A program made the translations under genes and the position numbers. Of a DNA stretch of 64,000 nt, positions 3,183 through 15,950 are shown piece by piece. The notes under the pieces were generated by a model. The model was not told the DNA's origin, did no database searches, and worked only from the letters and a program-made list of their open reading frames with translations. Every line of letters starts with the position of its first letter. Position 1 is the stretch's first letter. The stretch comes from PVC group bacterium (lineage in GTDB: Bacteria > Verrucomicrobiota > Kiritimatiellia > CAIKKV01 > CAITUY01). The stretch is from assembly GCA_945890715.1 (NCBI GenBank), contig CAMDCX010000005.1, forward strand, positions 2,478-66,477, in the 5' to 3' direction.

Positions 3183-6100
3183 CTAATTACGCCGCGCGTT
3201 GATCCGAAAAAAATACTGCTGACCGGCGGGCACAGCGCTGGTTACAGAACAGGGGGAATCCTGCCCCTGTATTCCTCCATCCAGAAGCTGCCACGAACCC
3301 TCCAGCAAATTCGACCGGTAGAAAACATCGTAGCTCGCATTCGTCACACTCTGCCAACGAAGGGCCACTTCATTCATTCCCGGCTGCTCAATGGAGAGTA
3401 TGGAAAACTGTAGAGCATCGCCTCCGGCCTCAAGCTGGACGAAGTCATACATCAACCCCCTCACCGGCTGCACCGGCTTGGCGCCCGTCCAGGAGGCATT
3501 CTTGCTGACGGTGAACGCGATGACGTTGGTGCCCGGGTGCAGCCATGCCGGATCGAACGACCATTCCACCTGGCGAAACATGCCCGATTGTGTGGCGCTG
3601 CGGTAGATACTCGCGTCGTTGGTGAGGGACACGTCGGGCAGACTTGTGCCATTGACGGAGGTGAACAGAGTGCCACCCACACTGCCGGCCATGCCCAGCG
3701 TCAACACTACCGGCGCCGGCGGCAGGTCCGTCAACGTGAACTCGATCTTCCACACCGGGCTGAAATAGGTTCCATCGTCCATCGCCACGACGGACTGTGC
3801 GTAATACCAGTCGGCGGCCGAGCTACTGCCTACACGATAGACGAGGTCATTGGTGCCTTGCTCTTCCAGGTAGCGCCACCACAGGCCGAATTGTCGCATG
3901 CGATCACCAAAGCGGAACTCCCCCGCGCTCAGATCCGGCGTGCCGATCCGCCACAAGCGGCGTTCACGTCGTGGGGGTTGCCATTCCAGGAGGCCGAGAT
4001 CATGGGTGGCTCCCGGCGACACGGTCAGGTCGTCCAATCGAAACTCGCCCACCATCCCGGGCACGCGTGCAAACAACGTGTAGTTCCCGGGCCGCACCTT
4101 GGGAATCACGAAACTCCCATCCTCCGAAGCGCGCGTCCAGAACTGGTATCCCTCACTTTGCTGTTGCCAGTAGGAGCCCGGTTGGGCAAGCACCACCAGG
4201 GCATGGTTGGCCGACTCCCCCGGGATGCGCAACCGACCCGCGACAGTCCCCCGCGCGAGCGGATAGAGGGTCTCGTTCATCCACGCGTAAGGCCAGGCAT
4301 CCTTTTCCGCAGCGGCCTTGTTTTGGGCATCGTCCCACAGTTGCGCGGCGTTGGCGCCCGAGTTGATGTAAATGAAAAACGGCCCCATGATCTTGTCCCA
4401 CACCTGGTCCGCCGCCATCACGATGGGAGCGCTGCCAAAATGCTGGCCGTGGGGTATCCAGAGCAGCGTTGGGGTCGTGTCCGTCCCGTGAACGGTCTGG
4501 TTCGCCTTGGTGGGGCCCCCGTTGTAATACTCGACGCTGCCCATGACCATCCATAACCCGATCCTGTCGCTGGAAACCCCGTGCACGAGGTGAGCTTCTA
4601 TCGCGTTCGCCCAATCGTACTTAGTGTAAACCGGGTAATGATCCTCCGTGTAACCGGTTTCATTCGTATAGCTGCTCACCATCGGCAACCGGTGCGTGGC
4701 GTCCATGATCATCGGGCTGACCGTGGTATTCAGCAGAGCCGGCGCGATCATCTGTCCGGTCTTGCCTGGAGAGGCATAGGCGCGCGTGAAGACATTCCCG
4801 TCACAGCGAACCTTCATGAGTGTCTGGGTCAGGGATGCCTGGGGATTGCCCGGGCGGTGACGCCAGATGGCGTGCACACACAGCCCGCTGTCTCCGGCGC
4901 GAAGTGTGTAATGCAATTGCACTTTGAACCCTATGAGGTCGCTGTCGGTCAAGGCAATCTCTACGCGGGAGGGTGTGTTGGTCACCACACGGTAGCTGGC
5001 GCCGTCGAAGGCGACGTTTTCGCTTGCGCCTCCATCCTTGGAGCCGAAGGCGTCATAGTAGATGAGTCCGCCGTTCGCGAGCAGGTTGGCGCCGCCCGCC
5101 AGCCGCAGATCCGTGCACTCCCCGTTGCTCTTGGTGATGACGGCGGAGACAATGCCGTTGGCCAGTGTGAAGGTTGCGCCATTATCCGTGAGTGTGACGG
5201 GTTGAGCCGGTCCATCCAGGGCGCCCTGCAGGGCGAACGTGTAAGGATCGCGTTGCGGATCGGTGTTGCCGATGGAGACCGTGGCCGTCCGCGTGCCCGC
5301 TCCCTGGGGGAGAAATCGCGCCGTGAACGTCGCGGAACCGCCCGCCGCGACGGATGCGGACGGCTGCGAAATGACGCTGAAATCCGCCGCGTGTGCGCCG
5401 GTCACCGTCACTGGCGTCGCATTGGTCAATTCCAGCGCATAGGTCCCCGAATTGGTGATGGTGAACGTCCGCTCGATGGGAGCAACAATCGTCGTCGCGC
5501 CGAAGTCCGTTCCGGCCGCGGCGCTGACGCTGGTCATGCCGTTGGTCACGTCGCTGCCGTCAACGCCGAGAACACGCATCACCGGAAACGGACCCGAACC
5601 CTGCACCGCGAAAGTGTAGGGATGATGACCGAGATCCGTACTGCCGATGGAGACCGTCGCCACGCACGTTCCAGCGCCCAATGGTTCGAACTTCAGGTCG
5701 AAAGTCACCGCTTGGCCGGCGGGAATGTTCGTCGGTGACGGTTGCCGGGTTACCGTGAAGTCGGCGGCGTGATCGCCGAGCACCGCCACGGCGGGCGAAT
5801 TCGTCAGAAACAGTTCGGCCAGTCCGCTGTTGGTAATGGTGAACGTGTGAGTGAGCGGGTCGCCAAAGGAACGGTATCCGAAATCCGTCCCCGCGGCCGC
5901 CGTCGGCGCCGGTTCGCCGCAGGCGATCTCGGCGCCGTTCGTGCCGAGCACCGCCATCTCCGGCACATCGGAATTGAGACTGACCACCAGTCGCACTTCT
6001 CCAGCCCCGGCCTGCAAGGAATACAGTTTGCCGAACGGCATGTCGCCCAGTTCCAACCCGTTGTCCGTCAGGTTCCCGCCGTAGGTCATCAGGACGTAGG

Positions 6101-8603: not shown

Positions 8604-9452
8604 TTACGGCTTGCCGCGTGGCGTTTTGCCGAAGGCATCGCGGTAAACGTGGTGGAAGTGCCGTGTGTCGGGCATGCCGACACAAACGGCAATATCGGAG
8701 ACCGATAGGTCGGGTTGGGTTGCAAGCAACGCGCGGGCCTGCGCAAGCCGGACATCCAGGACAAATCTCTTGGGCGACATGCCCGTGCATTCTCGGAAGA
8801 GCTGACGGAAGCGCCCCGTAGAAAGATTGCAAAGTTGAGCCATTCGTGTGACCGTCCATGCGGCGGCACAGTTCTCCCGTACCCTGCCAAGGATACGGGT
8901 AATCCTGATATCCTGTTTCACGGGCATTGCACGCAGCCTGTTGCCATGCGTCAGTTGCTCATAGAGAAGCCAGGTGACCACCTGTTGGAAAAAGGGCTTT
9001 CCCATCGGATGGGAGCAGCCGAGAAGGTGCGTACAAGTGGCCAGCTTCTTGAACCAGAGCGCCTTGTCCGCGAGAACGCCAAAGGGGGTTGCGAGCTTGT
9101 CGAAGAAGCGATGCCCATTTGCGTCGACGGCATGCAGATGCAGGGCGAACACCTCGTAGGAGTCGGTGCCATCAGCCATGGTGACGCCGTGCCGTTGCCC
9201 GGCGGAGACCATGATGAAGTGGCCGGGTCCGACATCGCGGGACACGTCTCCGACCGTGCAGCGCAGGCTCCCCTTGCGCGGCACATAAATAAAATCATCC
9301 GGGATGATACGGCTGTCGGGAATCGTCTTGAACTCATCGCTCTCGTATAGCAGGCAGGAGAGCGGCAGGATCTCAATCGCGCCAAACAAGTCCGTGATCG
9401 CCTCACGGTCTTCCGCTGTAAGAAATTCGGGCAAAGCTGATGCTATTTTCAT
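8604..9452 (-). CDS. AraC-family transcriptional regulator (cupin sensor plus HTH)
   Basis: 282 aa. The C-terminal part (...WTVTRMAQLCNLSTGRFRQLFRECTGMSPKRFVLDVRLAQARALL...SDIAVCVGMPDTRHFHHVYRDAFG) is the AraC HTH signature. Confidence 0.85.
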   Translation of the reverse strand: MKIASALPEFLTAEDREAITDLFGAIEILPLSCLLYESDEFKTIPDSRIIPDDFIYVPRKGSLRCTVGDVSRDVGPGHFIMVSAGQRHGVTMADGTDSYEVFALHLHAVDANGHRFFDKLATPFGVLADKALWFKKLATCTHLLGCSHPMGKPFFQQVVTWLLYEQLTHGNRLRAMPVKQDIRITRILGRVRENCAAAWTVTRMAQLCNLSTGRFRQLFRECTGMSPKRFVLDVRLAQARALLATQPDLSVSDIAVCVGMPDTRHFHHVYRDAFGKTPRGKP

Positions 9453-9606
9453 GCCGATTTTTACAACAATGGCGGGCTGTGGTCAATCGGGGAACAACGG
9501 GAACAACGGGGAACAAGGTGACAGGCTATTAGTATAGAAATACATTTACATACGTATAGATTGTGCTAGTCTTTCCACAGTTGGGGAGGAACCCCGGGAG
9601 GTGACT

Positions 9607-9765
9607 ATGCGTAAGGCTAGGATTGTTGAGGTAATGGCGGCGTACTATCACGTGGTGTCACGAGTGGTGGGGCGGGAACGTCTGTTCGACGCGGCGGAGG
9701 AGCGGGAACGGTTCACCAAGACCATGAGGCAGGTGCAAGGGGGGCGTGATAAGTATGAAGGATGA
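9607..9765 (+). pseudogene. Y1 transposase-like (IS200/REP-associated tyrosine transposase type), N-terminal fragment
   Basis: A 52-codon ORF, MRKARIVEVMAAYYHVVSRVVGRERLFDAAEERERFTKTMRQVQG..., below the ORF-track cutoff. It parallels the second copy at 12222. There is no HUH motif or catalytic Tyr. Confidence 0.6.
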
Positions 9766-9810
9766 ATTATGAAGGATGAATTATGAAGGAGGAATTATGA
9801 GGGATGAAAA
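9755..9810 (+). repeat. Four tandem copies of a 14-bp unit, ATGAAGGATGAATT
   Basis: Read directly: ATGAAGGATGAATT, ATGAAGGATGAATT, ATGAAGGAGGAATT, ATGAGGGATGAAAA. Each unit carries an SD-like AAGGA and an ATG. The last SD (AAGGAGG) precedes the ATG at 9797. Confidence 0.9.
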
Positions 9811-10144
9811 GCCCGAGGATTTAAGACCGCGTACCAAGAGGTTTGCGCTCGACGTGATTCGCCTGTATGCAACATTGCCAAAATCAACAGAAGCGCAGGT
9901 GTTGGGGCGGCAAGTATTGAGGTCTGGTACATCTGTGGGCGCGAATTATCGTGAGGCTTATCGGTCCCGATCCAAAGTCGAATTCATTGCGAAAATTGGA
10001 GATTGTCTCAAGGAACTTGAGGAGTCCGGTTATTGGTTTGAACTACTTGCCGAGAGTGCCATGATGGATGCGTCTAAAATGCTGGGCATTCGAGATGAAT
10101 GTAATCAACTTCTAGCCATTATGACCACAATTTCAAAGAAATAA
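9797..10144 (+). CDS. Four-helix-bundle protein (23S rRNA intervening-sequence protein / Avd family, TIGR02436-like)
   Basis: 115 aa. Contains ...RFALDVIRLYATLPKSTEAQVLGRQVLRSGTSVGANYREAYRSRSKVEFIAKIGDCLKELEESGYWFELL..., the signature of this family. A strong SD (AAGGAGG) lies 4 nt upstream. The gene is visibly AT-richer than its surroundings (GC not computed). Confidence 0.85.
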   Translation: MRDEKPEDLRPRTKRFALDVIRLYATLPKSTEAQVLGRQVLRSGTSVGANYREAYRSRSKVEFIAKIGDCLKELEESGYWFELLAESAMMDASKMLGIRDECNQLLAIMTTISKK

Positions 10145-10162
10145 AAAGCAGGGCTTTCATAA

Positions 10163-10185
10163 TTCATAATTCATCCTTCATCCTT
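10163..10185. repeat. Inverted-repeat partner of 9751-9773, closing the four-helix-bundle cassette
   Basis: The reverse complement of 10163-10185 is AAGGATGAAGGATGAATTATGAA; 9751-9773 reads AAGTATGAAGGATGAATTATGAA (22/23 match). The arms enclose 389 bp. Confidence 0.85.
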
Positions 10186-10438
10186 GCTGAAGGGGGTGAT
10201 GGCGGCGAGAGGGAAGTTATCATTGAACGAGATCCTGCGATGCCGGGTGAGATACTTTACGGATGGGGTGATTCTGGGGAGTCGGGTGTTTGTTGAAGAC
10301 CAGTACCGCAAGCGTCGTGGCCTGTTCAGCGAGAAGCGCGAAACGGGTGCGCGTCCGATGAAAGGTGCGGAGTATGGGGGACTGTGTACGGTTCGTCAGC
10401 TTCGGGTGGATGTCTATGGTCATGGCGCGCCGGCGTAG
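10184..10438 (+). pseudogene. Y1 transposase-like protein, C-terminal fragment
   Basis: Contains ...GKLSLNEILRCRVRYFTDGVILGSRVFVEDQYRKRRGLFSEKRETGARPMKGAEYGGLCTVRQLRVDVYG.... It is homologous to the fragment at 14475-14654. It begins exactly at the end of the inverted repeat. Confidence 0.6.
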
Positions 10439-10700
10439 TGGGTAGGGGTTGGAAAATCCGGCAGGGCAGGGCGGATCTCATGCGGCTGGTAGCCAGAACC
10501 AGTCGCATTGGAGCATTGCGTGTGGCATGCCGATTTGGTGTAATCCTGATAGATTTTAAGCGAGAGTTGGTGGCTGAAGCTGGCCTACTGGTTAATGGAT
10601 CGCTCATAAGGGTGTCCTGATTGAATAACATGATGAAAGATAGCTCGGAAATTCACGGCTTACAGTCTATTAGCCGGTCACCTTGTTCCGGTCTTGTTCC

Positions 10701-10946
10701 ATTATCCAAAGCTTGGATTCGATCTCGACGCAACCCGTGGTCTGGAAGGGCCTGCGTCTTTACGGATGCTGGCATTGGAATCATCTGACCGACACCGAAC
10801 GGATGATGCGCACGATTGCCGGCTCGTCAGAACGGATTGACAAAATGATCACGCATCGCTTTCCGATGGAGAAACTGGGTGATGCGTTCGATCTCCAGGT
10901 ATCCGGTTTATGTGGCAAAGTGATCATCCATCCATGGGAGGCATAA
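10701..10946 (+). pseudogene. Zn-dependent alcohol dehydrogenase paralog, C-terminal fragment
   Basis: ...GLRLYGCWHWNHLTDTERMMRTIAGSSERIDKMITHRFPMEKLGDAFDLQVSGLCGKVIIHP aligns with the C-terminus of the adjacent intact ADH. The N-terminal ~270 codons are missing at the element E1 boundary. Confidence 0.6.
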
Positions 10947-11986
10947 TGAAGACAGTTGCGATTACAGGTAAGCAGAGTTGTAAAATCGTCAAAAAACAGG
11001 TGCCGAAGGCCAAAGATGACTACGTCGTGGTGAAAATTCATACGGCGCCTTTATGCACGGAATACACCGATTACCGCGATGGTTGCACTCGGGCGGAGTT
11101 CAAGCGCGGTGACGAATCGCCGGACTGCCTCGGGCACGAGGCCGCGGGAGAGGTGGTCGAAATTGCCCAACCCGGAAAGGTCAAAGTTGGAGATCGTGTG
11201 GTGGTTATGCCGGGGTTCTGGTGCGGAAAGTGCCGCTTCTGCCTGTCAGGTGAATATATCCATTGCCAGAATCCGCCGAACCCCCTTACCCACTGCGGAT
11301 GCGAGGCGGGAGTTGCCGCGTATGCGGAGTATTGCCTGAAGCAGGACTGGCTGCTGTTGCCGATCCCGGACGGGATGTCTTATGACCATGCGTCCATGGC
11401 TTGCTGTGGCCTCGGGCCCGCGTTCAATTCCATGCAGACCATGGAGGTGTGCGGACACGACACGGTGCTCGTCGCAGGCACGGGACCGGTTGGACTCGGC
11501 GCGGTCATCTGCGCCACCTACCGGGGCGCACGGGTGATCTGCCTGGGACGCAACCCCTATCGCACTAAACTCGCACTGAAACTGGGCGCGGAGGCGGTGC
11601 TGGATCCCCAGGATAAGAACATAAAACAACAGATTTTTGATCTGACAGACGGGGAAGGCGCTTCCAAATCGGTTGAAACCACGGGATACCACCTTTATAT
11701 GGATGTGGTGATGAAGTCCACCCGACGCATGGGACAAGTGGCTATTGTTGGCGAGGGTGGCGAATATCCTCTGCATATCAGTGACGGGCTGATTCGCACC
11801 GGTCTTCAACTCCACGGTATCTGGCATTGGAATCTTGCCGACGCTCCGGACATGATGCGCATGATTGGCCGCGTGGGCGGCAAGCTTGACACGGTGATAA
11901 CTCACCACTTCCCGCTGGATCAGATTGAGAAAGCCTGGCAGTTGCAGATGACCGGGCAGTGCGGCAAAGTCATCATTAACCCCTAA
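10946..11986 (+). CDS. Zinc-dependent medium-chain alcohol/polyol dehydrogenase
   Basis: The ATG at 10946 overlaps the upstream fragment stop (TAATG). Contains GHEAAGEVVE, the structural-Zn Cys cluster CGKCRFCLSGEYIHC and the Rossmann motif VLVAGTGPVGLG. Confidence 0.85.
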   Translation: MKTVAITGKQSCKIVKKQVPKAKDDYVVVKIHTAPLCTEYTDYRDGCTRAEFKRGDESPDCLGHEAAGEVVEIAQPGKVKVGDRVVVMPGFWCGKCRFCLSGEYIHCQNPPNPLTHCGCEAGVAAYAEYCLKQDWLLLPIPDGMSYDHASMACCGLGPAFNSMQTMEVCGHDTVLVAGTGPVGLGAVICATYRGARVICLGRNPYRTKLALKLGAEAVLDPQDKNIKQQIFDLTDGEGASKSVETTGYHLYMDVVMKSTRRMGQVAIVGEGGEYPLHISDGLIRTGLQLHGIWHWNLADAPDMMRMIGRVGGKLDTVITHHFPLDQIEKAWQLQMTGQCGKVIINP

Positions 11987-12010
11987 CGGATAGAACACAG
12001 GAGAGCAGCC

Positions 12011-12136
12011 ATGAGCAAGGAAGAACAATGGGTAACGGTAAAAGGAACGGAAGGGCCGGGCAAAGGCAAGCACATCGTCTTCATCAGCGGTGATGAGGAA
12101 TATCGCTCCGAGGGGCCGCCAGGGACAGGAAAATAG
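12011..12136 (+). pseudogene. ThuA-like domain protein, N-terminal fragment (tentative)
   Basis: A 41-codon ORF, MSKEEQWVTVKGTEGPGKGKHIVFISGDEEYRSEG..., where the ...IVFISGDEEYRSE pattern resembles ThuA-like proteins from memory. It ends where element E2 sequence begins. Confidence 0.35.
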
Positions 12137-12221
12137 TTAAAATAGTTTGAAATATAATAGAGTATAGGTTCGTTATGAGTAGAAGAGGCACCGGGAGGGG
12201 TGCCTGAGGGAGGAGACTCAT

Positions 12222-12386
12222 ATGCGAACAGCGAGAATCGTGGAGGATGGGGCGGCATATTATCATGTGATGTCGCGGGTGGTGGATCGGCGTCGGGTGT
12301 TTGATGAGGGGGAGAAGGAGCTCTTTCGCAAGACGATGCGGGCGGTTGCCGGATGTATAGGCTGGCTGAATTTGGGAAGACGCTGA
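12222..12386 (+). pseudogene. Y1 transposase-like protein, N-terminal fragment (copy 2)
   Basis: MRTARIVEDGAAYYHVMSRVVDRRRVFDEGEKELFRKTMRAVAG... followed by a stop. It shares about 55-60% aa identity with 9607-9765, with many synonymous differences. It is preceded by the hairpin GGCACCgggaggGGTGCC and a GGAGG SD. Confidence 0.6.
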
Positions 12387-12440
12387 AGCAACGGGTAAGT
12401 TTTTCGTATAACGATATGTCACGGGCGAAATACTATCTTC

Positions 12441-12468
12441 CTGGTCTCCCTGGTCTCCTCTGGTCTCC
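12441..12468 (+). repeat. Three tandem copies of a 9-bp unit, CTGGTCTCC
   Basis: Read directly: CTGGTCTCC CTGGTCTCC t CTGGTCTCC. Confidence 0.8.
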
Positions 12469-12561
12469 CTACCCAATTAGGGAATTAAGCAAGGTAGGTT
12501 GAATTCCTGTGATGAAACAGGTAGTGTCCCTGCTTCAACTACTATGTGAAGGAGAACGGCG

Positions 12562-14385
12562 ATGAAAGTGTTACCCCTGTGTGTCATGATGATCGTAATG
12601 GCGACTGTCGGGCTTGGGGCAGTCACACGCTCCGACCTCGCGCCCGCCACGATCAGTGTCCTGCCGGCGCAGGTTTCCATTATCAAGGTGAAGGGAGGGA
12701 ACACCATCGAAGGTGAAATCCTGAAAAACGAAGGATCATCCAACGATGTTGTGATCAAGATCGACACTGGCAAGATCGTCAGCCGCAAGCGTTATCCAAA
12801 ATCAGACATTGTTGAAATCAAGCCTGAAAACCTGGAATTACTTCTGGCCAATGCCATCCGGTCGCTTCACACGCCCCCCAAGACGAACCTCACGGAAAGC
12901 GCCTATGCCGCAACGGTAGCGCTGTGCGATGATTTCCTGGCTCATTGGCCCTCGAGTCAGGAATCCAACTGGATATCGGAGCGACGCAAGGAATTCGCCT
13001 CCGAACAGGAAAAAGGCGTCCGCGGCCTCGAAAAACTGGATGGCGAATGGATGCCGCCGATCAAGGCGTCCGTTAGTCGTTATATTGCAGAAAGCCTTAT
13101 CATCTCCAAGGCCCAGGCCCAATACCCGGGTATTGATAATCCCACCTATACCCAGAATCCTTCGGCAAGGAAATCGTATGAACGGGTTCTGGAGAGACGA
13201 CGAGCCATCGCGCGTCGGCTCCCCTCACTGATGAATGAACGCATCCCGATCCTGCTGGCGGCAAAGGATTTCGATCAGGCCGCCTCTGAAATGGACACCT
13301 TTGTCCGGTTCTGGGTCGAGCGGGTAACCCGCAACCGGATCACTCGCGGCAATGCCGGCAAGGGCGGGGAATCGGAGTTTGCCGAGATGGATTTCTCGGC
13401 CATTATCGCCATGGAAAAGAAAATCATGGCCGCCTATCTGAAAGACCGGAATCCCGCCGAATTGAAACCGCCCGCTAACGTGGATCCTGGCATGGTGTTC
13501 ATTCCTGGAGGCCTGTTCCTGATGGGCCGTGAAAATGCGACCCCGGCGGATTCTGATTTCCCCATGCGGCTGATTCGGGTTAATCCTTTCCTGATTACCC
13601 GCTGTGAGGTTTCTAATGCGGAATACCGCCGGTTTGTCGAGCATGTCAAATCCACCCAGGACTACAGCATGGAGCATCCCGACGCGCCGCCCCTCAAGGA
13701 TCACAAGCCTGACGGCTGGAATACTCCGTCGTTGAGCCGGGATGTCCAGCCGGTAGCCGGGGTCGACTGGTATGACGCCTATGCCTTTGCGAAATGGAAA
13801 GGCATGCGTTTGCCGACCGAGGCGGAATGGGAGCTGGCTGCCCGGGGAACAGATTGCCGGGATTATCCCTGGGGGGCAACTTCCCCCGCGGAATTGGTCG
13901 TAAACAATCCTTCAGGGCGTAGTTATATCGCCGCAGAAATGGATAAACGTGACCCCCCGCCACCCCCTCCGCGTTTTTCCTGCACCCGCCAGGAACCGAG
14001 GCCTCCCCGGGTTCTTCCGGTCGAGACTTGGGATGTCACCCAAGGCGTACCTCAGGAGTTGTTGGGCGGACTCTTCACGATGGACTCGGCGGGCACCCCG
14101 TATGGCTTGCTGCATATGGCCGGAAATGTGGCGGAATGGGTTCAGGACTGGTTCGATCCCGATGCCTATTGTGTCATGAGCCAGGACAACCCGGTTCATG
14201 TCAACAAAGGGCAATGGCATATCTATCGCGGCGGTTCCTACTTGAGCCCGGATGCCGAACTGAGAACCACGGCCAGAGGTAACGGCACCCCTCCCTATTT
14301 CAACAAGGGTTGCCAACCCGGTTCAGGCATCCCGATCATCGGGTTCCGGTGCGTCAAGGATATCCCGTCCGCGCCCGGAAAATAG
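12562..14385 (+). CDS. Secreted protein with a C-terminal formylglycine-generating-enzyme (FGE-sulfatase/SUMF1) domain
   Basis: 607 aa with an N-terminal signal or TM segment. The C-terminal ~290 aa contain ...MVFIPGGLFLMG...RCEVSNAEYRRFV...PVAGVDWYDAYAFAKWKGMRLPTEAEWELAARG...HMAGNVAEWVQDW...YRGGSY...GFRCV. The domain is interrupted by a Pro-rich insert (DPPPPPPRF...). Confidence 0.8.
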   Translation: MKVLPLCVMMIVMATVGLGAVTRSDLAPATISVLPAQVSIIKVKGGNTIEGEILKNEGSSNDVVIKIDTGKIVSRKRYPKSDIVEIKPENLELLLANAIRSLHTPPKTNLTESAYAATVALCDDFLAHWPSSQESNWISERRKEFASEQEKGVRGLEKLDGEWMPPIKASVSRYIAESLIISKAQAQYPGIDNPTYTQNPSARKSYERVLERRRAIARRLPSLMNERIPILLAAKDFDQAASEMDTFVRFWVERVTRNRITRGNAGKGGESEFAEMDFSAIIAMEKKIMAAYLKDRNPAELKPPANVDPGMVFIPGGLFLMGRENATPADSDFPMRLIRVNPFLITRCEVSNAEYRRFVEHVKSTQDYSMEHPDAPPLKDHKPDGWNTPSLSRDVQPVAGVDWYDAYAFAKWKGMRLPTEAEWELAARGTDCRDYPWGATSPAELVVNNPSGRSYIAAEMDKRDPPPPPPRFSCTRQEPRPPRVLPVETWDVTQGVPQELLGGLFTMDSAGTPYGLLHMAGNVAEWVQDWFDPDAYCVMSQDNPVHVNKGQWHIYRGGSYLSPDAELRTTARGNGTPPYFNKGCQPGSGIPIIGFRCVKDIPSAPGK

Positions 14386-14474
14386 CGTCGTCGGGGTTTT
14401 GCATTCACGGGCGCTAGGAAGGCGCAATGAATCACTACTCCTCTTGTTTGCAGGTATAGAGGGCGGAGTGATAG

Positions 14475-14654
14475 CGACCTCGGATCTCCTTGGGGAGCCG
14501 GGCGTTTGTGGAGGAAGCGTTTTTGAGACACCGGGCGCATTTTAGCACGAAACGGGATGAGGGAGCCAAGCCGATGAAGGGTGGGGAATGGGGAGATCTG
14601 TTTACCGCCCGACAGTTGCGAGTGGATATTGTGGGGTTCCCGGCACCTGCGTAA
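14475..14654 (+). pseudogene. Y1 transposase-like protein, C-terminal fragment (copy 2)
   Basis: Hand translation gives ...ISLGSRAFVEEAFLRHRAHFSTKRDEGAKPMKGGEWGDLFTARQLRVDIVGFPAPA*. This aligns with the end of 10184-10438. It is not in the ORF track (an in-frame stop lies immediately upstream, so no long ORF forms). Confidence 0.55.
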
Positions 14655-14769
14655 CGGGGGTGGTGGCGGATATCAGGATGAATCCGGTCGGCACTTCACG
14701 CCCGCCGTCATCCGGTATTGTGTTGGGATGGCTGATTTGGTCTATTTGCATCCAGTCTCCTTCCCTCCT

Positions 14770-14924
14770 TCCTGGTGGTCAGAAATGTACCCAGCGACGA
14801 AATCCGACGGCTTGCCGTGGCCCGGGGAATGGAGACCTTGCGGCATAATGCCTGGCAAGTCGCTATGGAAGGAATTACCACCGTTGAGGAAGTCCTGCGC
14901 GTCACTCCCGGCGAACGAACTTGA
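14770..14924 (+). pseudogene. GspE/PilB-type secretion ATPase, extreme C-terminal fragment
   Basis: Hand translation gives ...VPSDEIRRLAVARGMETLRHNAWQVAMEGITTVEEVLRVTPGERT*, matching the conserved tail (G.TT.EEVLRVT) of type II/IV secretion ATPases. The rest of the gene is absent. Confidence 0.45.
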
Positions 14925-14957
14925 TTTTCCGCGAAATGGGGACTAAGGAGTAGGGAC

Positions 14958-15950
14958 ATGAACCCTTCCAGAATAGTCGACATGGCCAGCCGTTTCTACG
15001 ATTCGTGCGTTCTGTTTACAGCCTCCGATCTGGGTATTTTCGGAAAACTTTCCGAACTTAAACAGGCAGATGCCGAAACACTCGCCTCTGCCTGCGGCAT
15101 CAACATCCGTGGTGCCACACTCATTTTGGACGCCTGCGTCGCACTGGGGTTGCTTGCCAAGGACGATTCACTCTACACCAATACACCGGAATCAGCCCTT
15201 TTTCTGGTGCCCGGCTCCCCCGCCGACCTGTCAAAAGCCATTCGCTACAATCGCGATGTTTATCCCGCATGGGGACAACTGTCCGAACTCATCAAAACGG
15301 GCCGCCCCGTCGAACGCCCCGAAATCCACCTTGGCGAGGACAAGGATCGCACCCGCAATTTCGTTCTTTCAATGCATGGCCGGGCCATGGGTATCGGCCG
15401 GACAGTTGTCCCTCTTCTCGACCTTAAGGGGCGAAAAACACTTTTCGACGTCGGTGGCGGCCCCGGCACTTACTCAACGCTCATCGCAAAGGCAAATCCG
15501 GAAATTCACTGTACCGTTCTCGATCTTCCGGAAGTTGTAAAAATCGCCGATGAACTGATCCAGGCCGCAGGAATTCAGGGCCGGGTGAAAACCTTGCCGG
15601 GCGATTACCACACCACACCCTTCCCAAAGAACAATGACGTTGTGATATTTTTCGGCATGTTGCATCAGGAGTCACCTGATTCCATCTCGGATTTATTCCG
15701 CCACGCCTATGAATCACTGGTCCCCGGTGGAGTTGTCTACATTCTCGATATGATGACCGATGCCACCCACACCCAGCCGAAGTTTTCCGCTCTGTTTGCC
15801 TTAAACATGGCCCTCACCACTCAAAACGGCTGGGTATTCTCCGATCAGGAACTGGCCCGCTGGCTGAGCGATGCCGGATTCACCGATTTTACCTGCAGCC
15901 CCTTGCCGCCGCCGATGCCCCACTGGCTGGCCTCAGGACGAAAAATATGA
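14958..15950 (+). CDS. Family-2 SAM-dependent O-methyltransferase with N-terminal dimerisation domain (BzaC-like candidate)
   Basis: 330 aa with the SAM motif [12 protein letters not shown] and the winged-helix dimerisation N-terminus typical of COMT/BchU/CrtF/BzaC-type OMTs. It overlaps cobT by 4 nt (ATGA). Confidence 0.8.

Follow-up and report, generated by a model that had tools for sequence, protein, structure and literature searches.

Two separate relics of one Y1 transposase family probably flank a resident FGE-sulfatase gene

The locus described here, termed E2, lies in a 64-kb stretch of DNA (the window) and contains fragments of a transposase-like gene on both sides of a complete gene encoding an FGE-sulfatase domain protein. 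Coordinates of its features and of a related element in the same window, E1, are listed in Table 1. The sequence-only reading of this DNA had taken E2 for a gutted transposase-like scaffold with the FGE gene as its passenger. Rfam, searched at a permissive threshold, showed neither an intron nor a riboswitch or any other RNA across 9300-15000, which rules out a gene split by an intron. Scanning 12000-14900 for promoters and terminators yielded no more sites than shuffled sequence. Pfam was uninformative for the short reading frames of the flanks; the one at the left border had no match in Pfam or PDB and is possibly a truncated host gene. Gene debris forms the flanks of both copies, with a PilB-like C-terminal remnant at E2 and an ADH C-terminal fragment beside E1.

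Table 1 Features of the E2 locus and of the comparison copy E1.
Feature	Position	Strand	Remark
E1 element	9510..10689	+	23-nt inverted repeats at 9510-9532 and 10667-10689
Left flank, short ORF of 41 aa	12011..12136	+	reads directly into the left end of the element
Left terminal inverted repeat, E2-type (GCCGCCAGGGACAGGAAAATAGT)	12115..12137	+	homology to L020 begins at 12115
AT-rich 5' leader, left end to ATG	12138..12221	+	12115-12346 is 89% identical to L020
N-terminal fragment, Y1 transposase-like, codons 1-42	12222..12346	+	12115-12346 corresponds to L020 3894-4125
Middle fragment, codons ~119-140 (..MYRLAEFGKTLKQRVSFSYN), other frame	12347..12411	+	matches L020 and L005
Right end, subterminal segment and right terminal repeat	12412..12475	+	matches L005 and L006
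FGE-sulfatase (SUMF1/EgtB/PvdO-type) domain protein, 607 aa	12562..14385	+	PF03781; outside the mini-element
Orphan C-terminal fragment, codons ~285-338 and stop, E2-type	14491..14654	+	homology to L005
3' untranslated region remnant (105 nt)	14655..14759	+	ends ~90 nt short of the expected right end
Right flank, PilB/PilF-type ATPase remnant, last ~45 codons	14760..14924	+	phmmer against PDB

The transposase fragments belong to a family of ~340-aa Y1 (HUH) tyrosine transposases, related to the IS200 and RAYT transposases. As the E1 and E2 fragments alone gave no match in Pfam, their membership rests on homology to intact copies. Intact relatives (P0023, P0024, P0026, P0028 and P0029) matched PF01797 (Y1_Tnp) with 31-48 bits against a cut-off of 23. 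Scores for the NCBIfam models stayed below threshold, with 16-25 bits against a cut-off of 55 for NF033573 (IS200 transposase equivalog) and 47-57 bits against 80 for NF047646 (REP_Tyr_transpos), where only the C-terminal half of the model aligned. The family is multi-copy in lake-metagenome contigs and MAGs labelled Verrucomicrobia/Verrucomicrobiota or 'bacterium'; the same metagenomes contain intact as well as broken copies in large number, 60-100% identical, and the 64-kb window contains two lineages plus mini-derivatives. Intact relatives, which the sequence-only reading had suggested looking for, were found for both types. They retain the HUH and catalytic tyrosine motifs (GNHFHIL and AAYIDLN in the E1-type copy L009, ENHFHIL and AAYIDLN in the E2-type copy L020). 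In E2, codons 43-118 and 141-284 are absent; with both the HUH motif and the catalytic tyrosine deleted, E2 is a dead relic rather than a working member of the family.

The family is bounded by inverted terminal repeats of ~20-26 nt with short tandem repeats at their tips. Their core, AGGG(T)GACAGGCTAATAG, was present in at least 12 intact copies as well as in E1 and E2, and in the intact copies it is positioned ~96 nt upstream of the ATG and ~230-280 nt (about 245) after the stop codon. E1 is bracketed by inverted copies of the E1-type core GGAACAAGGTGAC, which recurs five further times at 1733-1891, giving 7 exact copies in the window; with up to 2 mismatches, 9 matches were counted in the 64 kb versus 1.5 expected. 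Pairs of this core that can form hairpins include the palindrome 1792-1822, and a unit consisting of ends only lies at 1725-1895. Other mini-derivatives are P0020, a 78-aa fusion of N30 and C48 found on 13 contigs, and L031, in which N40 is joined to the 3' region. With a long Y1 transposase, genuine terminal inverted repeats, numerous mini-derivatives and nested insertions, the family is apparently uncatalogued.

Judged from the alignments, the left part of E2 (12115-12475) represents a complete, closed and doubly deleted mini-element, built from left end, leader, codons 1-42, codons ~119-140 and right end. The pattern of its left repeat occurs once in the window versus 0.01 expected. This repeat differs by 1 base from CGCCAGGGACAGGAAGATAGT, the 21-nt reverse complement of the right end of L005, a contig with an uninterrupted E2-type gene (24/26 when 5 outer bases are included), and CGCCAGGGACAGGAAGATAGT is identical to the left end of L020. 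The open reading frame 12222-12386 translates to MRTARIVEDGAAYYHVMSRVVDRRRVFDEGEKELFRKTMRAVAG..., with homology of the N-terminal fragment stopping at 12346. The adjoining middle piece, which lies in another frame and had gone unnoticed in the sequence-only reading, corresponds to L020 4352-4416 (91%) and, from 12351 to 12411, to L005 1-61 (92%). Equally overlooked was the right end at 12412-12475, with which the left unit is complete before the FGE gene begins. It holds three tandem CTGGTCTCC units, and 12412-12453 matches L005 845-883 and L006 847-885 (86%). These segments, the inverted complement of the left end, are situated ~195-235 nt past the stop codon of the intact gene. At the tip of the right end, three GGTCTCC units differ from the tip of L005, so the outer boundary is inexact.

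Alignment with the intact copy L020 (89-91% identical, HUH motif present) fixed both internal junctions exactly, at 12346/12347 and 12411/12412. With the first deletion 226 bp were lost, among them the HUH motif; the second fused codon 140 straight to the right end, thereby closing a mini-element of 361 bp. The junctions read GCGGT/TGCCGGATG and CGTATAA/CGATATG, exhibit 0-1 nt of microhomology without a motif in common, and look like plain illegitimate deletions. A GGAT/CGGAT microhomology that seemed to be shared by the first deletion and the E1 junction was dropped once the L020 alignment had moved the junction to 12346/12347, with at most 1 nt of microhomology. The unit fits the MITE-like definition in that it is short, carries the terminal repeats of its partners (L020, L005) and encodes no functional transposase, and as both ends are kept it could be mobilisable in trans. 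Neither a second copy of the exact 361-bp unit nor a target-site duplication was found, and there was no empty site by which to show that the unit is a discrete insertion. An exact look-up of the N-fragment reading frame returned a single further entry, this locus as present in a second assembly (L100, 99.96% identical). The contig ends of L005, L006 and L026 at the deletion edge hint at further variants.

Beyond the FGE gene, the reading frame 14490-14654 translates to ..GSRAFVEEAFLRHRAHFSTKRDEGAKPMKGGEWGDLFTARQLRVDIVGFPAPA. Here, 14491-14759 corresponds to L005 490-757 (93%), and homology to ~10 intact copies begins at 14489-14491. No right terminal repeat was found after the C-terminal piece, and L005 758-890 has no counterpart there. 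That the fragment lacks the last ~90 nt of the 3' region and the right end was a further point missed by the sequence-only reading. The adjoining 14760-14924 aligned by phmmer against PDB to the last residues of PilF/PilB chains (E 1.5e-4 to 5e-3). From these matches, the second relic appears as an internal 3' piece devoid of both ends that was fused by deletion to the PilB-like remnant. Recombination or deletion at element copies may have produced the surrounding gene debris.

The 607-aa gene product matched PF03781 with an E value of 7e-50 (170.5 bits at a gathering cut-off of 23.3), confirming the complete FGE-domain gene seen earlier, and starts with a hydrophobic, signal-like N-terminus. 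It scored far below the cut-offs of all NCBIfam equivalogs, e.g., GldK, EgtB and SenA, and an exact-sequence look-up gave no match. Its homologues are full-length proteins of ~600 aa that form a conserved family, from 69% down to 35% identity. The composition check that the sequence-only reading had proposed for the passenger gave a GC content of 0.567, a GC3 of 0.655 and a codon score of -1.04 (host: -0.96 to -1.25), all three values being host-like; GC skew in the element arms is +0.35 to +0.46. At three homologue loci the contexts were unrelated and differed from each other, in a comparison that covers relatives of at most 69% protein identity (closest 62-69%), a distance at which gene order is unconserved. 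At the two of these loci with available DNA (L007 and L008), tblastn gave no match to the transposase family. The gene is not enclosed by the two ends of any one element, the right end at 12412-12475 lying upstream of it, and it neither travels with the element at the homologue loci compared nor has a foreign composition. Because the two relics, a 361-base mini-copy and an orphan tail, lie on either side of a normal gene, we regard the FGE gene as a resident neighbor and not as cargo.

When the E2 pieces were searched against the window by tblastn, the only other homologous pair was that of E1, at 9607-9741 (E 6e-13) and 10259-10435 (E 7e-19). This confirms that the N- and C-terminal pieces of the two loci are homologous, both being parts of the Y1/HUH (IS200/RAYT-like) transposase. 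The DNA identity between E1 and E2 was computed as 67.2% in the N arms and 62.5% in the C arms, close to the 60-65% estimated before. In E1, nt 143-771 of the intact-type element are replaced by a 447-bp cassette encoding a four-helix-bundle protein (23S_rRNA_IVP), while its arms are 92-95% identical to L009. As had been claimed, both N fragments break near the same point: homology to intact relatives ends at codon 45 in E1 (L009 nt 142/143) and at codon 42/43 in E2 (12346/12347), 7 nt apart. The data support two diverged lineages of one transposase-like family that have each lost the catalytic core independently. On its own branch E2 has accumulated 10 synonymous versus 3 non-synonymous changes, so that its gutting is recent compared with the divergence of the lineages. 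The E1-type cassette is found in the L106 lineage too, there at codon 171, and a literature search linking the four-helix-bundle/23S_rRNA_IVP family to transposases found nothing relevant. The cassette, which recurs in sister copies, is a more unusual item than the E2 relics and the one feature here that specialists might find worth a closer look.

We read E2 as two distinct remnants of a single mobile-element family, one on each side of an ordinary FGE-sulfatase gene of the chromosome, with a probability of about 0.78. The earlier proposal, a single gutted element whose catalytic core was swapped for an FGE passenger via cassette exchange between conserved end scaffolds, draws on N and C pieces of the same orientation and sub-lineage that bracket a complete gene, and in E1 the arms do enclose a foreign cassette that lies within the terminal repeats. 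It is nevertheless hardly credible for E2, as a right end precedes the FGE gene while none follows the C piece, the gene is host-like in composition, and its homologues are unlinked to the element at three loci. Mapped onto L005, segments 1-61, 845-883 and 490-757 appear in the window at 12351-12411, 12412-12453 and 14491-14759; sequence that lies 3' of the gene in L005 therefore sits before the FGE gene here, and such an order is impossible by simple insertion. The succession of left end, N piece, middle piece, right end, FGE gene and orphan C piece likewise lends no support to cassette exchange. The fragments appear to have arisen separately around a resident FGE gene, an outcome that the sequence-only reading had itself set against its proposal. 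Its idea of non-autonomous derivatives that keep the ends is supported for the left part of E2 (12115-12475).

The FGE gene would not be cargo either if one full-length E2-type copy had been broken by a complex rearrangement, in which a deletion plus relocation or inversion of neighboring DNA moved part of the 3' half by 2 kb and both relics go back to one insertion event. In line with this, the orphan segment (L005 490-757) falls wholly inside the segment missing from the first relic (L005 62-844), both relics are ~92-93% identical to the same relative, and a right end followed by a C fragment is also seen in L022 and L006. By chance, however, about one in two 268-nt pieces would come to lie in the missing segment, and the scenario takes three or more breaks together with a transposition of DNA. 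Furthermore, the downstream C fragment of L006 is clearly of a different lineage, indicating that adjacent independent copies are common. A single rearranged copy is thus quite unlikely in our view, and two independent relics remain the preferred reading.

A position-specific process, as proposed earlier, has weak support: in 13 broken copies of independent origin the left breakpoints cluster (codons 30, ~32, 40, 42, 42, 45, 46, 54, 58, 59, 103, 121 and 182), yet no fixed site emerges and the cassette is also found at codon 171. A mechanistic hotspot near codons 42-46, and perhaps ~120, would imply preferential cutting or joining that repeatedly yields defined gutted derivatives, e.g., if the site served the Y1 transposase as a pseudo-end or was a cassette target. 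Ten of the 13 left junctions lie within codons 30-59 (naive binomial P 1e-8), five independent ones within ~15 nt (L031, L074, E2, E1 and L043/44), and at the right edge of the first E2 deletion L005 and L006 begin and L026 breaks. On the other hand, the junctions are spread, the L106 lineage carries the same cassette elsewhere, those of E2 have 0-1 nt of microhomology and no common motif, and E1 and L074 probably represent one shared event. Short contigs and assembly breaks favor the detection of early junctions, and selection for small derivatives that retain their ends predicts the same clustering. We consider such a hotspot unlikely and the clustering near codons 30-59 a likely reflection of sampling bias. 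Improbable, too, is the more specific version in which independent lineages repeatedly gain, at codons 42-46, either deletions or the stem-loop cassette, resembling a 23S-rRNA intervening sequence, that encodes the four-helix-bundle protein. A pseudo-end had been suggested by the resemblance, by eye, of the E1-type sequence CAGGTGGAAGG to the terminal-repeat core AAGGTGACAGG; it is absent in E2-type and L043-type copies and the idea was abandoned. If the hotspot were true, gutted derivatives would stem from a defined, possibly transposase- or cassette-driven reaction, with the first E2 deletion as one product.

Where more than random decay had been invoked, we read ordinary decay of an insertion sequence. 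As such, the E2 locus is routine and mainly of relevance for annotation: merging the N and C fragments into a single pseudogene would be wrong, as would annotating the FGE gene as mobile cargo.

In comparison with known systems, the complete non-transposon gene bracketed by same-orientation pieces of a HUH transposase resembles the arrangement in cargo transposons and ISCR/IS91 elements. It differs from them in that the FGE gene is not located between one left and one right end, is host-like in composition and does not co-occur with the element at homologue loci. The first relic is MITE-like, as its 361 bp carry partner-type terminal repeats, its catalytic core was lost via two internal deletions and several further minis exist in the same transposase family; in contrast to MITEs, it is known from a single locus and its mobilization is inferred. 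With IS200/IS605 elements and PATEs the family shares the Y1_Tnp (PF01797) superfamily, the HUH and tyrosine motifs of intact copies and internal-deletion derivatives that keep just the ends. IS200/IS605 elements have been described without terminal inverted repeats and use subterminal hairpins, whereas this family has clear inverted terminal repeats of ~20 nt at fixed distances from the gene. The likeness to RAYT/REPIN systems comprises the Y1/HUH fold, matches of intact relatives to NF047646 (below cut-off) and PF01797, and a gene flanked by inverted short repeats whose core is also scattered nearby within the window. Classical RAYTs are single-copy, vertically inherited and domesticated; this family, in contrast, is multi-copy, with many near-identical intact copies plus decayed ones, and its protein is ~2x longer, with an insert of ~50 aa and a C-terminal extension of ~150 aa. 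The family lies between the IS200/IS605 and RAYT/REPIN systems and may for this reason help to show how REP-like repeats arise from element ends.

Two peptide-coding pieces of a Y1/HUH transposase-like gene do flank a complete 607-aa ORF at the E2 locus (12115-14759), and this part of the sequence-only reading is borne out by the ORF list, the raw sequence, tblastn and a match of the ORF product to PF03781 (FGE-sulfatase, E 7e-50). Tblastn of both pieces against the whole window returned E1, the copy of the same family at 9510-10689, as the sole other homologous pair (9607-9741, E 6e-13, and 10259-10435, E 7e-19). At the DNA level, E1 and E2 are 67.2% identical in the N-terminal arm and 62.5% identical in the C-terminal arm. 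The supposed scaffold around the FGE gene is three things lying side by side: a MITE-like mini-element, a resident gene and an orphan 3' fragment. The stretch around them is full of gene debris associated with the element, including an alcohol dehydrogenase (ADH) fragment, the remnant of a PilB gene and, at 1725-1895, an ends-only unit.

Features of E2 and E1 and their counterparts in retrieved metagenome loci (L-numbers).
Feature	Window position	Position in retrieved locus	Basis
E2 N-terminal coding piece	12222-12386		ORF list, raw sequence
E2 C-terminal coding piece	14490-14654		ORF list, raw sequence
Complete 607-aa ORF (FGE gene)	12562-14385		ORF list, raw sequence
E2-lineage left end GCCGCCAGGGACAGGAAAATAGT	12115-12137
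Ribosome-binding site and first ~21 codons	12208-12285		cross-lineage DNA conservation
3' untranslated motif (..GGTATTGTGTTGG..GATTTG..)	14666-14755		cross-lineage DNA conservation
E2 segment	12351-12411	L005 1-61	92% identity
E2 segment	12412-12453	L005 845-883	86% identity
E2 segment	14491-14759	L005 490-757	93% identity
E1 terminal inverted repeats, 23 nt	9510-9532 and 10667-10689		
Four-helix-bundle gene in E1	9776-10144		PF05635 (23S_rRNA_IVP), TIGR02436 (four helix bundle protein)
~450-bp cassette	9741-10187 (E1)	L043 4138-4565; L044; L074 4126-4320; L106 490-906; L006 915-945

The joined E1 fragments, used as database query, returned mostly short gene calls, two of which were informative. 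P0006 (216 aa), similar to E2 in sequence, covers the middle and C-terminus without interruption, and in P0020 (78 aa) the first 30 residues are fused in frame to the C-terminal 48. This fusion is present on 13 contigs from several samples (L001-L003, L076); by analogy with truncated-transposase inhibitors, such a conserved mini-protein could be a candidate transposition regulator. Among 1.84 billion representative proteins, a profile search picked out 2930 clusters at E <= 0.001. Those of the best matches that are complete proteins were mostly about 320-370 aa long and scored above the cut-off for Pfam Y1_Tnp (IS200-like), while the NCBIfam RAYT model was matched below cut-off only. Close intact relatives were retrieved for both lineages: E1-type L009 (337 aa) has both HUH and tyrosine motifs and arms 92-95% identical to E1, and E2-type L020, 89-91% identical to E2, has both motifs on a contig that stops at about codon 240.

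At least 12 intact metagenome copies share with the E1 ends the core AGGG(T)GACAGGCTAATAG, placed about 96 nt before the ATG, with its inverted copy about 230-280 nt past the stop. Within the reverse-complemented L005 right end, a 21-nt stretch, CGCCAGGGACAGGAAGATAGT, equals the L020 left end exactly and is one base off that of E2; with five outer bases added, the L005 right end and the E2 left end match at 24/26 positions. The end-repeat pattern occurs once in the window, versus 0.01 expected.

L005, in which the gene is uninterrupted, served as map reference for E2. The first junction was set by L020, where window 12115-12346 corresponds to 3894-4125 and 12347-12411 to 4352-4416. The left unit starts with left end and leader and continues with codons 1-42. 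A 226-bp deletion, in which the HUH motif was lost, separates these from codons ~119-140, which are in a different frame; a deletion of ~780 bp then leads to the right end. This makes 12115-12475 a closed 361-bp mini-element. Microhomology at both E2 junctions is at most 1-2 nt, and they look like plain illegitimate deletions. The mini-element closes 87 bp before the FGE start codon. For E2, both cassette exchange and the idea of a different passenger are wrong, as the right end precedes the FGE gene, whose composition is host-like.

With a GC content of 0.567, a GC3 of 0.655 and a codon-usage score of -1.04, the FGE gene stays within the range of 18 other long window ORFs on all three measures. 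In contrast, GC skew in the element arms is +0.35 to +0.46, and the GC content of the E1 cassette gene, 0.45, is foreign to the host. Homologues of the FGE protein over its full length (about 600 aa) span identities of 69% to about 35%; the few with a name carry Kiritimatiellae/Kiritimatiellia or Verrucomicrobia MAG labels. Three neighbourhoods examined differ mutually (ABC transporter; Pirin and adenine glycosylase; HAD hydrolase and peptidase genes), and tblastn gave no match to the transposase family at the two with DNA, which speaks against a passenger tied to the element in relatives. L100 is the same locus in another assembly (99.96% identical). Nothing marks the FGE gene as cargo.

The C piece at 14491-14759 is a fragment from inside the element: about ten intact copies align to it from 14489-14491 onwards, and the homology ends at 14759, about 90 nt before the expected right-end position, and a search of the window for the repeat pattern found no right-end repeat after it. 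The proposal of non-autonomous derivatives keeping only their ends is right for the left unit. The truncated 3' region of the C piece is joined directly to 14760-14924, where the C-terminal ~45 codons of a PilB/PilF-type secretion ATPase gene survive. A C-terminal ADH fragment (10683-10946; last ~62 residues, 50% identical), from a paralogue of the neighbouring zinc alcohol dehydrogenase (10910-11986), starts right after the E1 right terminal repeat; the rest of that gene was removed by deletion next to the element. In L022 (4816-5690), the last ~440 bp of the element, from codon 270 to the right end, are duplicated in tandem directly past the right end, and in L006 (847-1075) no more than 30 bp separate the right end from a cassette terminus and a C fragment of another lineage. 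The arrangement seen in the window, with a C fragment after a right end, thus has parallels elsewhere.

Elsewhere in the window, 1725-1895 is an ends-only miniature of an E1-type element, in which GGGAACAAGGTGAC(AG) is present four times in direct and twice in inverted orientation, with a perfect palindrome (1792-1822) among these copies, together with a copy of the E1 right subterminal region (1823-1895, similar to 10632-10700). The preceding ORF stops abruptly after an LDAGAGSG methyltransferase-like motif, and 1908-1932 is a possible remnant of an E2-type right end.

The suggestion of a recurrent, position-specific process is weakly supported. Among 80 loci surveyed with the N-terminal motif as seed, many were intact, and 13 independent copies were broken internally, with left junctions at codons 30, ~32, 40, 42, 42, 45, 46, 54, 58, 59, 103, 121 and 182. 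These are clustered (naive binomial P 1e-8, with short contigs and assembly breaks favouring detection of early junctions), but the cluster is about 90 nt wide, not a single site, and at several junctions, as in L004 and L077, another mini has inserted into the copy. The first ~65 nt of the ORF and the 3' untranslated motif show unusually high DNA conservation across lineages: compared with many loci, 12208-12285 and 14666-14755 are 74-87% identical between lineages whose proteins are only ~60% identical, which suggests cis-acting sequences within and just past the gene. Junction clustering and these conserved regions fit selection for small derivatives retaining cis-acting ends. The branch leading to E2 carries 10 synonymous and 3 non-synonymous changes; the gutting of E2 is therefore recent and, as had been proposed, independent of that of E1. 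At the right edge of the first E2 deletion (codon ~120, ..CGGATGT), the L005 and L006 contigs start at position 1 and L026, a third E2-type copy, breaks (about 345). This shared edge could be an assembly branch point from population deletion variants or a second recurrent junction.

In E1, the cassette gene is flanked by 30-nt inverted repeats and the cassette takes the place of L009 nt 143-771. The closest E1 relative, L018 (a bin-482 contig, 97% identical to the E1 left arm), sits, in the same orientation, 2 kb past the right end of another copy, extends to at least codon 119 and is unbroken at codon 45, so the replacement is recent. Gutted family copies carry the cassette in three or more arrangements, joined at codons 45/253, 46/256 (L043 and L044, at the same left site as E1) and 171/294 (the L106 lineage, with the same right junction again in L006); L074 has a small extra deletion, and the right terminus (..CATCCTTG) does not vary. 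In DNA, the cassette ORFs of E1 and L043 are 85% identical and the element arms 66-70%, which could reflect a cassette moving between element lineages or, equally, arms that drifted or were converted. At L100 1-23, 23 nt of a different N arm (..CGCGGGTGGTGGAAGG) are joined to the cassette at the E1 junction, which implies that the sample has a second cassette-bearing copy with this junction, or else that the contig end is chimeric. A literature search found no link between the four-helix-bundle/23S_rRNA_IVP family and transposons. The E2 relics are a new yet ordinary addition to the Y1/HUH mobile-element world, and the E1-type cassette has the same architecture as rRNA intervening sequences, a four-helix-bundle gene within ~30-nt inverted repeats.
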